NCBI GenBank assembly: GCA_900546715.1
Contig: UREA01000002.1
Location: 20,050 to 84,049 of the forward strand
Length of the DNA: 64,000 nt
DNA from: an uncultured Mycoplasmatota bacterium
GTDB lineage: Bacteria > Bacillota_I > Bacilli_A > RF39 > UBA660
Direction of reading: 5' to 3'
Position 1 is the first letter of the stretch. The number at the start of each line of letters is the position of its first letter. The translations under genes were made by a program, and so were the position numbers. This document shows, piece after piece, positions 2,470 to 13,581 of the stretch. The notes beneath the pieces were generated by a model, which worked only from the letters and a program-made list of their open reading frames with translations, was not told the DNA's origin and ran no database searches.

Positions 2470-2517
2470 AAATCCTCCATATAAATTATCTTTGTTAAGA
2501 TAATTATAACATTTGTA

Positions 2518-4169
2518 TTATTTAATATTCAATACTTTGTTAAATTCATCTTTCATAGCTGGTCTCTTTGTTAAATAAAGACAACTTATTTCTTCTATTA
2601 AATTAGTAACACTTTTATCAGAACCTTTTATTTTAGATATATGACTAATGTTATATGCAAGAGCACGATAATCACTTCGATCACTCACAAATTTTGCTTT
2701 ATTTAGACATTCATCAATATATATTTCGATTAATTCTTTATTATATTTCGGTTGTAAATAGTGATCATAGATTTTTATAACTTCCATTCCCTTATCTTTT
2801 ATAGCTAAAAATAAATCATCAAACATTTTTTCTTCTACATAAATATTATATATAATACTTCCGGCATTAGCTTTTTTCAATTTATCTATAATATTTAATT
2901 TTTCTTTATCCCAATCTTGTTTATCATATAATTTTTTTATTTTATTATAAGTTTCTAAATCATAAATTTGATATTGAAAAAACATTTTATATAATTGCTC
3001 TTTATAATCTTTTATCATATTATTATCATAATAAATATTCATCAAATATTCTTCTAAATCTCTAACCCGATAATCTTTAGCATCTTTTATAATCCTTTCT
3101 TTTAATAGCTTTATAGCTTCATCTACACAATGTTCATTTATTAATAAATCAATATATTTTAAAAATATAGATTTTTCTTTAGAATATTTTTTAATAAATC
3201 TTTAATATTATTTTGTTCTTTTTTTAATTTATAAATATCAATTAAATAATCAACATAATATTTTGCTTTATAATAATAATCTTTATCTATGTTTTCATCT
3301 AAAACTTCCAATAATGAATTTTCTATTTCATTTATAAATAGTTTATTTTCTACAAAATAAGAAACAAGACGATATAACTCAATTCCATAATTAGATAAAT
3401 CTTCAGTTTTAATTTCGGTAATTACAAATTCTAATATTTTATGTGTAAGTTCTTTATCTTTATTAGCATTATTATTTAAAATATCATAAATTACTTTTAT
3501 ACAATCATTAGCAACCTCACTAGTAGAACCATTGGAATCATCAATTTCCGTATCAGGAATTGATTCCAATATAACTGATACTATATCAAAAGCTAAATTA
3601 TAGTTCCCTTTTTGGGTAAGTTTTTCCGCTTCATTTGTAAATTCGTACATATTATGGGTATATTCCCATGCATTTTCGTAATCTATATAACCATATTTGC
3701 CTTCACAGTTTTTTATACTGTCATAAATTTTTATTCTATATTCTTCTTTAGTTAAAGGATTGAAATATTCAATAAATTCTACTCGAAATTTATCATATAA
3801 CTTTGGGTTTGCTGATACTTCATTAATTAAAAATTCTTTTAAAAGATTGATAGGTATTTCATTCACTATAGTAGATAAATCACTTTCAGTAGTGATTGTT
3901 TCTAAAGTGTTTTCATTACTTAAATAATATAATAATGCTGCGATATGTTTGCAGTTATAGCGTCCCTCGGAATACGGGCAACTACACCCACCGTGCAAAA
4001 ATTGGTTATTGACAATTTCAACATGCACACTGTATTTAGATGATCCATAAACAACTGCAGTTATTATATCTCCATCTTTTTTAACGTTTGTTACATTTCC
4101 CTTTGCATAAATGCTAAAGCCACGCATTAAAATAATAGATTCAAATTCTTTTTCAAAATCAATATTCAT
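2518..4169 (-). pseudogene. SWIM zinc-finger protein, split into two frames at an A6 run
   Basis: The N-terminal 336-aa ORF (3159..4169) carries a SWIM signature (C-S-C-P...C-K-H). The second frame is open from 3201 down to 2518 and overlaps the end of the first. The two frames can be joined by a 1-nt slip in the homopolymer at 3187-3192. Confidence 0.6.
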
Positions 4170-11018: not shown

Positions 11019-11193
11019 GTTTATCATCTCCGTACTATATTAATTATACCTTAAAATTGCGAAATTGAAAATAAAACATGCAAAAAAAATTAAAATGTGA
11101 AGTGAAAAAATTAAAAAACGACAATTTACTATTGATTAATTTTTTATTTATGATAAACTATATTTAGAAAGGACTTTTATGGTGCAGGGGGTA

Positions 11194-11222
11194 TTGACAT
11201 CGATACTAATTTATAGTACAAT
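11194..11222 (+). promoter_or_regulatory. near-consensus sigma-A type promoter upstream of the abi leader
   Basis: TTGACA (11194-11199), exactly 17 nt, TACAAT (11217-11222). Confidence 0.6.
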
Positions 11223-11228
11223 AATTAT

Positions 11229-11271
11229 GTATTGATCTTCGGTATCCCGTGTGGACCGAAGACGTTTTTTT
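11229..11271 (+). ncRNA. short leader RNA / intrinsic-terminator hairpin immediately upstream of the abi ORF
   Basis: Hairpin CTTCGGT-ATCCCGTGTGG-ACCGAAG (11237-11261), followed by ACG and T7 (11265-11271), ending 1 nt before the ATG. No Shine-Dalgarno is visible. Confidence 0.45.
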
Positions 11272-12237
11272 ATGAAAGATTTTAAATTAGTAACTGAACA
11301 AGTCGATTTATTAAAATCAAGAGGTATGTTATTTGAAGATGAACAAGATGCTATATGTAAGTTATTAAGTGATAACTATTATAATATAATTAATGGATAT
11401 AAAGACTTGTTTTTAGATACTACTAACAATCAAGAGGTGTTTAAAACCGGTACAACTTTTAATGAGATATATGCATTATATGAATTTGATAATCAATTAA
11501 AAAATATTTTTTTAGAATATATTTTAAAAATTGAAAACATTTTAAGAACTCAAGTAGCATATCATTTTTCAAGCTTTCACGGAAATGATAATTATTTAAA
11601 AATTGATAACTTTGATACTTTTTCATATAATACTTTTATCAACCCTAATCTAAAAGAAAAACAAATTAAACATATACAATTGTTAATCAGCAATTTAAAC
11701 AAAAAAATTGCTGATTCGATAAGTAGTACTAAATATATTAATCATTATATCATGAATTACGGTTTTATACCTTTATGGGTACTAGTTAATATTTTATCTT
11801 TCGGAGATATTTGCAATTTTTATAAATTAATGAATCAAAATGAAAGAATTCATATAACAATGTTTTGGGGAATTAGCGATAATGACTTAAAGAGTTTTTT
11901 AGGAATCCTATGTCACACAAGAAATTTATGCGCACACAATGAAAGACTTTTTAATTATAGCTTTCCTACTAGAGAAACTATAAATGATACAAATTATCAC
12001 AATTTATTAAATATTCCATCAATAAATAATAGATTTCAATATGGAAAAAATGATTTATTTGCTGTAATGATTGTGTTAAAAACATTACTTACTAAAGAAG
12101 ACTATCAAAAATTTCATTCAAAGATTTACAGCCGATTAAAAAGTATTGAATCAAAAATTAAAACGATTTCTTTGAATGACATTCTGGTAGCAATGAATTT
12201 CCCGTATAACTGGCATAGTTTATTAAAAATGTCCTAA
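11272..12237 (+). CDS. Abi_2 / AbiD-AbiF family abortive-infection protein (double HEPN-like)
   Basis: About 321 aa from the ATG at 11272; the track GTG at 11251 lies inside the hairpin. Family-typical NYYNIINGYKDLF and HTRNLCAHNERLFN (Rx4H), plus an upstream RTQVAYH (Rx5H) motif. Confidence 0.8.
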   Translation: MKDFKLVTEQVDLLKSRGMLFEDEQDAICKLLSDNYYNIINGYKDLFLDTTNNQEVFKTGTTFNEIYALYEFDNQLKNIFLEYILKIENILRTQVAYHFSSFHGNDNYLKIDNFDTFSYNTFINPNLKEKQIKHIQLLISNLNKKIADSISSTKYINHYIMNYGFIPLWVLVNILSFGDICNFYKLMNQNERIHITMFWGISDNDLKSFLGILCHTRNLCAHNERLFNYSFPTRETINDTNYHNLLNIPSINNRFQYGKNDLFAVMIVLKTLLTKEDYQKFHSKIYSRLKSIESKIKTISLNDILVAMNFPYNWHSLLKMS

Positions 12238-12258
12238 GTCCACACGGGATACTTAGGA
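12232..12258 (+). other. hairpin spanning the abi stop codon; loop complementary to the leader-hairpin loop
   Basis: TCCTAAGT-CCACACGGGAT-ACTTAGGA. TAA (12235-12237) lies in the 5' arm. The 15-nt core GTCCACACGGGATAC (12238-12252) is the exact reverse complement of GTATCCCGTGTGGAC (11242-11256). Confidence 0.7.
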
Positions 12259-12322
12259 TCATTATAAGTATATACAAAATAAATACTATTATTACCAAAA
12301 CTATATTCCAACCATTTTATAT

Positions 12323-12357
12323 AAAAAGTAGGTTAATTTTCAAACCTACTTATTTTT
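12323..12357. terminator. bidirectional intrinsic terminator (abi and eno)
   Basis: A-run, GTAGGTT, 8-nt loop, AACCTAC, T-run. The right arm overlaps the eno stop codon. Confidence 0.6.
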
Positions 12358-13581
12358 ATTTAGTTTTTCTTCAATTCGAAGTAATTGATTGTATTTAGCA
12401 ATTCTCTCTCCTCTACACATCGAACCGGTTTTAATAAATGGAATTGCTAAACCTACCGCTAAATCGGCAATAAATGTATCTTCAGTTTCCCCACTTCTGT
12501 GAGATATAATAGTTTTATAATTATTCTTTTTAGCAAGTAGTATTGTTTTAGTCATTTCAGTAATTGTACCTACTTGATTAGCTTTAAGTAGTATTGCATT
12601 ACCAGCTTTCATATCAATACCCTTTTGTAAATATTTAACATTCGTTACAAAATAATCATCACCAACAATCATTATTTTGTCTCCAACTTCTGCCGTAAAT
12701 TTTTGAAGTGTTTCAAAATCATCTTCATAAAATGGATCTTCAATACTTAATATTGGATATCTTTTAATTAAACTTTTATAATACTCTATTAATTCATCAC
12801 TATTTAATTTCTTGCCATCAATACTATAGTTTTTAGTATCTTTATCATACATTTCACTAGCAGCAACATCTAGAGCGATAAATACTTCTTCTCCTGGTTT
12901 ATATCCGGCTTTTTTTATAGCTTCAACAATAAATTCTAAAGCCATAGCATTATTTTCTAAATCTGGAGCAAAACCACCTTCATCACCAACACCAACACTA
13001 TAGTTATTTTTAACAAGTAACTTCTTTAATTCATGAAATATTTCCGAACCCGCTCTAACCCGTTCTTTTATTGTTTTAACTACTGGTACAATCATAAATT
13101 CTTGAATGTCGATATTATTTACAGCATGAGCTCCGCCATTAATAATATTAATCATTGGAATTGGCATAGAAACATTTTTACTAGAAACATATTCAAACAA
13201 ATCTTTTTTTTCAGATTCCGCTAAACATTTAAGACATGCAAGGGATACTCCTAAGATGGCATTAGCTCCTAAATTGCTTTTATTTTCGGTTCCATCAAGT
13301 TCAATTAATATTTTATCTACATCTGCTTGATTAGCCTTTTTACCAAGAAGAGCTGGAGCAATAATTTTATTAACATTTTCAACAGCCTTTAGAACTCCTT
13401 TACCACCATATCTAGCTTCATCTTTGTCTCTTAGTTCCAAAGCTTCACGTGATCCAGTTGATGCTCCACTAGGTACACTTGCTCGCATTTTTACATTATT
13501 ATCTAGAGTCATTTCTACTTCAACTGTAGGATTTCCTCTACTATCTAAAATTTCTCTTGCTTTAACATCTTTAATTAACAT
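12346..13581 (-). CDS. eno: enolase (phosphopyruvate hydratase)
   Basis: Canonical N-terminus [22 protein letters not shown] and conserved SHRSGETED. Start set at the ATG preceded by GAGGTGAT; the track ORF carries an 18-codon upstream extension. Confidence 0.95.

Follow-up and report, generated by a model that had tools for sequence, protein, structure and literature searches.

The results of this analysis indicate that the abi gene of an uncultured Mycoplasmatota bacterium, located in a 64-kb stretch of contig UREA01000002.1 (the window, which was searched as a whole and to whose positions all coordinates refer), very probably belongs to a self-contained AbiF/AbiD-type type III toxin-antitoxin (abortive infection) module. 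The gene is bracketed by two related hairpins, unit U directly upstream of its start codon and unit D around its stop codon (Table 1). Judging from its structure and the invariant bases it retains, D appears to be a conserved inverted copy of U, and it was hypothesised that D is a second promoter-hairpin-terminator minigene on the opposite strand, convergent with abi, that would supply antitoxin RNA; the chances of this are considered about even. The explanation as a whole, an AbiF module with D as a second convergent antitoxin unit, is in our judgement just on the probable side.

The abi product matched the Abi_2 domain (Pfam PF07751, E = 8.7e-45, residues 33-228) and the AbiD model of PADLOC (E = 3e-59, residues 1-319), and its sole solved relative was PbAbiF of Prevotellaceae (PDB 8VZ6, E = 2.3e-15). 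These matches bear out the assignment to the AbiD/AbiF type of HEPN genes made in an earlier reading of the DNA without database searches (the sequence-only reading). The same reading had noted two Rx4-6H strings and called the protein double-HEPN. Both strings exist, RTQVAYH (R92..H98) and RNLCAH (R217..H222). Among 1255 homologues retrieved, 18 were aligned (alignment A1); the Arg of RTQVAYH was conserved in A1, but H98 was replaced by Y, N or F in most homologues. R217 and H222 of RNLCAH align to the catalytic R210 and H215 of PbAbiF, whose R210A+H215A double mutant was reported to be inactive (PMC12373285). Because only RNLCAH is conserved and aligned to R210/H215, the abi protein appears to be of the single-HEPN kind, with an active site formed by homodimerisation, and PbAbiF is itself a single-HEPN homodimer (PMC12373285; PMC12737573). 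The double-HEPN label, thus, was not upheld. The true start of abi is the ATG at 11272, since every homologue begins with MKEFK or MKDFK there. The longest open reading frame (ORF) starts at a GTG at 11251, inside the loop of the U hairpin, and the database entry P0001 (328 amino acids) adopts that start; given that the homologues all start at the conserved ATG, the 328-residue form appears to be a gene-calling artefact.

The U hairpin, TCTTCGGT-ATCCCGTGTGG-ACCGAAGA (11236-11262), consists of a stem (11236-11243/11255-11262), a 5' bulge, an inner CC/GG helix (11246-47/11253-54) and an apical loop, with a folding energy of -11.3 kcal/mol; it is 1 bp longer than the sequence-only reading had it. 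It is followed by CG and a run of seven T residues (11265-11271) abutting the start codon, and no GGAGG-like Shine-Dalgarno sequence was found before the ATG at 11272, so that the leader described earlier, a hairpin and T7 ending right before the start codon without a Shine-Dalgarno sequence, is indeed present. A simple terminator scan left this hairpin unflagged because its loop exceeds 8 nt. The near-consensus promoter reported before was also confirmed: it matches the consensus at 11 of 12 positions and is the top promoter-like site of the region, and both its TTGACA and its -10 box keep their positions in homologous loci despite diverged surroundings.

To place U among its relatives, 80 genomic loci with homologues at 35-100% identity to the abi protein were fetched, and a hairpin with a T-run was found directly upstream of the abi start in nearly all of them. 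A structure alignment of 33 distinct upstream units showed an outer stem of 8 bp and, beyond a 5' bulge of 2 nt, an inner CC/GG helix of 2 bp with an apical loop; in this structure, 95.4% of cells were paired, six of the ten pairs changed on both sides and the T-run was invariant. Compensatory cells numbered 53 as compared to 14.6 in shuffles (0 of 500 shuffles reached 53), and slid controls collapsed. The upstream copies contained 60 G-U pairs and only one A-C mismatch, which indicates that U functions as a plus-strand RNA.

AbiF is an experimentally characterised type III toxin-antitoxin in which a small non-coding RNA (ncRNA), encoded just upstream and equipped with a promoter and a terminator, attaches to the dimeric toxin and obstructs its HEPN site (PMC12373285; Zilberzwige-Tal 2025 as summarised in PMC12737573 and PMC13064643). 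According to these sources, the PbAbiF dimer binds two copies of the ncRNA. The Clostridioides difficile antitoxin RCd22 carries two 'abiF motifs', both of which are needed; it works in cis through premature termination and in trans through binding (PMC12373285). The promoter-driven hairpin of the window fits this antitoxin/attenuator, in agreement with the earlier suggestion that the leader is an RNA antitoxin. The statements of the sequence-only reading on an AbiF-associated ncRNA and on a link to Cas13 ancestry likewise proved correct (PMC12373285; PMC12737573; PMC13064643; PMC12165695).

The Rfam abiF family, RF03085, gave no match at E <= 10 in 71-nt and 1.9-kb scans of the window, and none in 24 related loci (20 genome loci, the Lachnospiraceae-type leader L058 and three Streptococcus/Enterococcus phage loci). 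As a positive control, RF03085 matched upstream of abiF in phage phiC2 with 37.6 and 19.5 bits. Conversely, a covariance model trained on the upstream hairpins only (R1) gave no match when searched against phiC2. These results suggest that the leader is an RNA of the AbiF-antitoxin kind that would belong to a structural class absent from Rfam 15. Separately, positions 11239-11285 (+), the hairpin with the following AAGAC, faintly resembled the 5' hairpin of the Rfam SpF44 small RNA of Streptococcus, with E values of 3.5-9.4 that are far below threshold significance; a literature search on SpF44 found nothing relevant, and SpF44 itself might be an AbiF-type leader RNA.

The D hairpin, TCCTAAGT-CCACACGGGAT-ACTTAGGA (12232-12258; stem 12232-12239/12251-12258), encloses the TAA stop codon (12235-12237), as had been noted from the letters alone, and the T-run on its minus strand corresponds to the plus-strand A-run at 12225-12229. 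The 15 nt at 11242-11256 and 12238-12252 are exact reverse complements; this 15-mer has only two copies in the 64 kb, even when three mismatches are allowed, with 0.09 expected by chance. At a level of 80%, the inverted repeat spans 40 nt (11230-11269 versus 12225-12264), and six of its eight mismatches make up three compensatory stem pairs. The earlier observation that the loops are complementary while the stems differ and still pair was, thus, correct. When both strands of U and D were folded, all four versions gave a hairpin with -11 to -13 kcal/mol.

The distribution of these units was examined by searching R1 against both strands of 548 kb (the window and 81 loci). The search yielded 79 plus-strand and 38 minus-strand matches (117 in total), and no further copy in the window besides U and D. 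All but a few of the plus-strand matches lay directly upstream of an abi start, and every one of the 38 minus-strand matches lay at an abi 3' end (the window and 37 other loci), with none elsewhere. The D-bearing loci form a single protein clade, reaching down to ca. 43% identity and comprising uncultured gut Bacilli and Erysipelotrichaceae-type metagenome-assembled genomes (MAGs). Two losses of D are nested inside this clade (L028 and L034/L036), and R1 detected no D in the Lachnospiraceae-type sister clade or in the phage homologues.

On its minus strand, D keeps all of the bases that are invariant in U (G7, C10, G15, C19, C20, G24, G27, G28, C30, G35, C37 and the T-run). In L016, L030, L032 and L035, the inner helix of D changed from CC/GG to CG/CG, a double compensatory change. 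In 31 of 37 loci, the stop codon is found at one and the same place in the stem (xCC-TAA/TAG-Gx). Within a locus, U and D were 0.82 identical in their loop cores, as compared to 0.68 when permuted between loci (0 of 10000 permutations), and 0.59 identical in their stems.

Several features point to the minus strand as the one on which D acts. Ahead of D on this strand, a consensus of tttGtATT, an unconserved spacer, cATAAT, 7 nt and GATCC is common to 35 diverged loci. In 28 of 37 loci, the base of the D hairpin is preceded at a distance of 8-9 nt by a (C/T)ATAAT-like box. A TTG-like element is located ca. 18 nt further up, and transcription from this box would start near a conserved G two bases before the stem. 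The D promoters scored 7.8 of 12 on average versus 6.2 in AT-matched controls; the U promoters in the D clade scored 10-12 of 12. In two loci, the minus strand was the more stable one (-9.5 versus -3.8 kcal/mol in L023 and -9.6 versus -6.1 kcal/mol in L032).

Other observations weigh against a minus-strand antitoxin gene or are neutral. The minus-strand -35 element of D is poor (2-3 of 6), the promoter in the window is ambiguous, and AT-rich DNA often yields single promoter scores of 7-9 of 12. The D stems contain six G-U and four A-C combinations, too few wobble pairs to tell the strands apart; because nearly all stem pairs are of the Watson-Crick type, either strand of D can fold with similar ease, which fits a plus-strand or a dual role. 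The fixed stem position of the stop codon could point to a role in the mRNA over mere compaction. Besides, the minus-strand T-run corresponds to Lys codons in an AT-rich genome, so that coding could explain it. In roughly one locus out of four, D and U have drifted apart, and the drifted copies may no longer be bound by the same protein. A single ncRNA gene suffices for PbAbiF and in the clade without D, and the stoichiometry requires no second copy.

The course of transcription, termination, protein binding, toxicity and triggering described below is inferred, for the upstream unit from the homologous systems. The strong promoter at 11194-11222 would yield an RNA of ca. 42 nt that is nearly all one hairpin, and the U7 tail would turn this hairpin into an intrinsic terminator, with most transcripts ending as free hairpin RNA. 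A minority would read through into abi mRNA, whose ATG, 9 nt past the hairpin and lacking a Shine-Dalgarno sequence, would be poorly translated. The toxin would act as a homodimeric single-HEPN RNase, and the free hairpin RNA would bind and block the dimer, with two RNAs per dimer as in PbAbiF. Upon phage infection, the labile RNA would be lost or titrated and the RNase freed. In D, the T-run is encoded by the last Lys/Met codons, and the Ser and stop codons lie in the stem. Leftward transcription of D would start at the weak -10-type promoter just downstream of abi or else result from read-through of the neighbouring enolase gene (eno). Its product of ca. 38 nt would carry the protein-contact core of U, and the antitoxin supply would become uncoupled from the toxin promoter. 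D would also halt convergent transcription before it enters abi in the antisense direction. Since D RNA would be antisense to the stop-codon region of abi mRNA, a cis-antisense, type I-like contribution is possible as well; what is conserved on the minus strand in this regard is the -10-like box, the hairpin and the T-run, with a weak -35 element.

Table 1. Features of the abi locus (positions in the window).
Feature	Position	Strand	Details
Promoter of leader RNA and abi, sigma-70/SigA-type	11194-11222	+	TTGACA 11194-11199, 17-nt spacer, TACAAT 11217-11222
Unit U, predicted antitoxin/attenuator RNA of ca. 42 nt	11228-11272	+	R1 54.2 bits, E 3.6e-11
abi, predicted 321-aa HEPN RNase toxin of the Abi_2/AbiD-AbiF family	11272-12237	+	Pfam, PADLOC and PDB matches
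HEPN catalytic motif RNLCAH (R217-H222)	11920-11937	+	R217, N218, C220, A221 and H222 invariant in A1
Unit D, inverted copy of U at the abi stop	12222-12266	-	R1 44.0 bits, E 2.4e-8
Promoter-like stretch for D, weak and ambiguous here	12261-12298	-	TATAAT 12266-12261, TATACT 12272-12267, TATATA 12274-12269, TTGGTA 12298-12293
Intrinsic terminator, bidirectional, common to abi (+) and eno (-)	12326-12351	both	Terminator-like hairpin on each strand

The complementarity of the two hairpins had led the sequence-only reading to propose that the leader kisses or pairs with the 3' hairpin. D would then act on the plus strand, in the abi mRNA, where the leader RNA or the 5' hairpin of the mRNA would engage the stop-codon hairpin; the outcome could be control of toxin mRNA stability or of translation termination, an antitoxin sponge, or a primitive guide-target pair for the AbiF-RNA complex. 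We regard this explanation as unlikely. It accounts for an exact complementarity of 15 nt here and of up to 20-24 nt in L024, with predicted duplexes of U and plus-strand D at -34 to -48 kcal/mol versus ca. -10 kcal/mol for each lone hairpin, and it is in keeping with near-wholly Watson-Crick D stems that also fold on the plus strand, with the fixed position of the stop codon and with the covariation of the U and D loop cores within loci. However, the complementarity is automatic if D is an inverted copy of U, and it was not always maintained: the longest complementary run, 4 to 20 nt across loci, did not exceed 5 nt in 8 of 30 distinct loci in which a stable D had been kept. Pairing is broken by 40 of the 56 differences between the U and D loop regions, and transitions showed no bias (16 wobble-compatible versus 12 mismatching). 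The preservation of the inner helix of D by compensatory change speaks for a structured hairpin that is read by its shape, not for an open pairing loop. In addition, the -10-like box and the T-run are conserved on the minus strand only, and L023 and L032 fold poorly on the plus strand. The comparison of both hairpins across Abi_2 loci suggested in the sequence-only reading found U conserved in nearly all loci, D conserved in one clade and their loop cores alike within loci, with the complementarity lost in 8 of 30 distinct loci; this weakens the pairing proposal and gives no support to obligatory kissing. Kissing or antisense effects are possible where the complementarity is intact, as in the window, and do not appear to be the conserved selective reason for D.

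A bolder version, in which the AbiF-hairpin ribonucleoprotein employs its exposed hairpin core to recognise the exact complement in the stop-codon hairpin of its own mRNA, is considered very unlikely. If true, it would represent natural sequence-specific RNA recognition by an AbiF ribonucleoprotein, serving self-targeting autoregulation or an mRNA antitoxin sponge that senses stalled translation, and would provide a functional stepping stone from RNA antitoxins to Cas13 guide RNAs.

D might instead be a mere terminator or insulator against convergent transcription such as eno read-through, or the decaying remains of a leader copy that arose by inverted duplication and whose likeness to U is kept by gene conversion; we hold this to be distinctly improbable, if less so than recognition of the mRNA by the ribonucleoprotein. 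The minus-strand hairpin and T-run do face the highly expressed eno, inverted repeats ca. 1 kb apart can undergo conversion, and D has drifted in some lineages and been lost in L028 and L034/L036. A terminator, however, needs no particular loop, whereas the loop core and all family-invariant bases of D were kept across proteins of ca. 43-66% identity between which the neighbouring intergenic DNA is unalignable. Conversion should homogenise the stems too, yet within loci their identity is only 59%, with differences that form compensatory pairs. The compensatory change in the inner helix shows selection on the fold of D itself.

The repeats could also be DNA sites, as in the suggestion of the sequence-only reading that they recombine to invert the ORF, or as terminal inverted repeats of a small mobile cassette. 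Perfect 15-bp inverted repeats do bracket a single gene, and the module occurs in unrelated genomic contexts among different MAGs. Nevertheless, the order promoter-U-abi-D was found in one orientation in 37 of 37 other D loci and, relative to eno, in 16 of 16 conspecific contigs. Inversion within the loops would yield mismatched chimeric stems, none of which was seen, and neither a recombinase nor a transposase gene was found next to the locus. The compensatory changes in the stems speak for a fold of a single strand and against a duplex site, and because the conserved promoters lie outside the repeats, the latter are not the terminal repeats of a mobile element. In view of the single orientation in these loci and contigs, the lack of chimeric stems and the lack of a nearby recombinase, both DNA-level variants were rejected and are given a very small probability.

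The gene is flanked by genes for a pyruvate:ferredoxin oxidoreductase (nifJ-type) and enolase, and its wider neighbourhood includes DUF308 and FemAB genes. Read-through from eno past the terminator at 12326-12351 would enter unit D. The sequence-only reading had described abi as a single-gene insertion between nifJ and eno. The flanking genes were identified correctly, but insertion is unproven: abi was present in all 16 conspecific contigs, with 0-1 differences over 11183-12360, and no empty nifJ-eno site was found, a look-up of the 411-residue enolase having given only abi-carrying contigs. In one conspecific contig (L207), positions 1-76 were unrelated to window positions 11107-11182, so that divergence sets in to the left of ca. 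11183, 11 nt before the -35 element. The abi module may have its left edge at this breakpoint, or the latter may be an artefact of the assembly end.

Hairpin units were also observed apart from the usual layout. In the Coprobacillus-type locus L040, abi (2475-3425) lacks a leader hairpin, a minus-strand copy follows the stop codon (3425-3460), and a further standalone plus-strand copy with the promoter TTGACT-17-TATCAT lies 180 nt downstream (3605-3649); this locus appears to be an alternative layout of the same promoter and hairpin parts. Solo promoter-hairpin-T-run units without an abi gene were found in L117/L231, L140 and L151. These observations suggest that the hairpin unit behaves as an autonomous, duplicating minigene, which counts in favour of the same reading for D.

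The solo hairpin of L231 (7829-7873, +; IMG/VR UViG_3300045988_158699, the same contig as L117) has the identical 15-nt core, a 10-bp stem, T7 and a perfect extended -10 element (TGTTATAAT). It is located between the serine integrase and the CI-like repressor of a temperate phage that encodes an endolysin, a slot that is occupied by abi in Streptococcus prophages, and another such copy is present in L232 (about 1330-1380). The L231 hairpin could be a phage-borne decoy antitoxin against AbiF (cf. pseudo-ToxI) or a remnant after the loss of abi. The orphan units in L140 (5636-5680, +; near a PBECR3-family nuclease gene) and L151 (793-837, +) scored 59.6 and 51.6 bits with R1 and have no downstream abi homologue. 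The same hairpin core with a CCTGG/CCAGG stem and no T-run, followed by a conserved 'aaacaggtaaggtgtaac', was seen in L168 (10636-10680, -), L189 (5489-5533, +), L195 (4839-4883, -) and L266 (about 411-455, +), contigs with few long ORFs under translation table 11. An exact 15-mer scan of metagenome contigs has little bearing on abundance: among the at least 120 matches listed, ca. 107 were chance matches without a stem, and real hairpins were rare and mostly beside abi genes.

Premature stops were found in the abi genes of L007, L041, L061, L077 and L080 (221, 199, 14, 183 and 171 amino acids, respectively), all with intact hairpin units; in L061, the upstream hairpin lies ca. 1.3 kb from abi. 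This looks like decay of the putative toxin with retention of the antitoxin. In the Streptococcus prophages L082 (1654-1752, -) and L081 (1812-1894, -), sub-threshold matches to Spy779816, a small RNA of S. pyogenes, were obtained (44.5 and 41.8 bits; gathering score 67). Both are convergent to abi, and the one in L082 abuts the stop codon; they may be a parallel example in which a convergent small RNA lies at the 3' end of abi.

A toxin with an upstream RNA antitoxin is already known, and the main interpretation of the leader in the sequence-only reading describes such a known system. Relative to the literature outside the primary Cell 2025 paper, what appears to be new is the compact class of leaders in which the hairpin is the terminator, a class that accompanies most of the sampled Abi_2 genes yet is missing from Rfam, and within whose loop gene callers place the ORF start. 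The clade-wide inverted second copy on the stop codon also appears to be new in this comparison, as does the evidence that the hairpin units are autonomous, duplicating minigenes. AbiF has been proposed as the ancestor of Cas13 (PMC12373285; PMC12737573; PMC13064643; PMC12165695), and its hairpin RNA as the ancestor of the CRISPR RNA repeat. In this AbiF subfamily, two opposed hairpin copies bracket the effector gene, each resembling an autonomous promoter-hairpin-terminator minigene; the RNA units may therefore duplicate and move independently and provide the raw material for a repeat array. If D is a real antitoxin gene, the module would be a type III system whose antitoxin supply is independent of the toxin promoter and which has an intrinsic antisense component. 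The solo prophage copies, in turn, may be anti-defence decoys.

Among known systems, lactococcal AbiD1 belongs to a homologous toxin family, and mRNA structure keeps its expression low at the stage of translation initiation (Bidnenko et al. 2009, PMC2661086), as RNA structure at the translation initiation region would lower expression here. Activation of translation by the phage protein Orf1 or by cold is particular to AbiD1, and no trigger can be read from the present locus.

In the type I loci txpA/RatA and bsrG/SR4 of Bacillus, convergent antitoxin RNAs overlap the 3' end of the toxin gene and act purely by base-pairing. A convergent small RNA gene overlapping the toxin 3' end is likewise predicted for D. 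Those antitoxins, however, are unrelated to any RNA upstream of the toxin, whereas D appears to be a paralogue of the putative protein-binding hairpin and overlaps the coding sequence by only ca. 13 nt.

The module resembles ToxIN and AbiQ in having an RNA antitoxin upstream of a predicted RNase toxin, a terminator between the two, and an abortive-infection logic. Phage-borne antitoxin mimics are known for ToxIN, and the solo hairpins on prophage contigs may parallel them. In contrast to ToxI, an array of 36-nt repeats in tandem that the toxin processes, the hairpin unit is not arrayed here: direct repeats of the hairpin were absent from the window, which contains one plus-strand and one minus-strand copy only. 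The HEPN fold is unrelated to ToxN, and a second, inverted copy is present.

The closest counterparts are AbiF-AbiFr and AbiFCd-RCd22 (PbAbiF, PDB 8VZ6, Zilberzwige-Tal et al. Cell 2025; Saunier et al. PLoS Genet 2025, PMC12373285). These share with the present locus an Abi_2 single-HEPN toxin with RNxxAH, a structured ncRNA just upstream, a SigA-type promoter and a terminator limiting read-through into the toxin gene, the latter elements being predicted here from the sequence; the two hairpin motifs per locus would match two RNAs per toxin dimer. The architecture of the hairpin differs from that of the RCd22 motifs. It also differs from RF03085 (Weinberg et al. 2017), which combines an outer stem of 6 bp with an A bulge, an inner stem of 3 bp and the 3' internal loop CAAAUC, as compared to the 8-bp stem, 5' bulge and CC/GG inner helix found here. 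No description of an inverted second copy was found in the literature examined, which excludes the primary Cell 2025 AbiF paper. RCd22 is ca. 100-130 nt long, contains its two motifs in tandem and has a terminator of its own at a distance of 168 nt from the ATG, whereas the putative antitoxin here is one 27-nt hairpin that would double as the terminator and ends at the start codon; and unlike in AbiF-AbiFr and RCd22, the second copy is inverted, lies on the stop codon and has a promoter-like box of its own.

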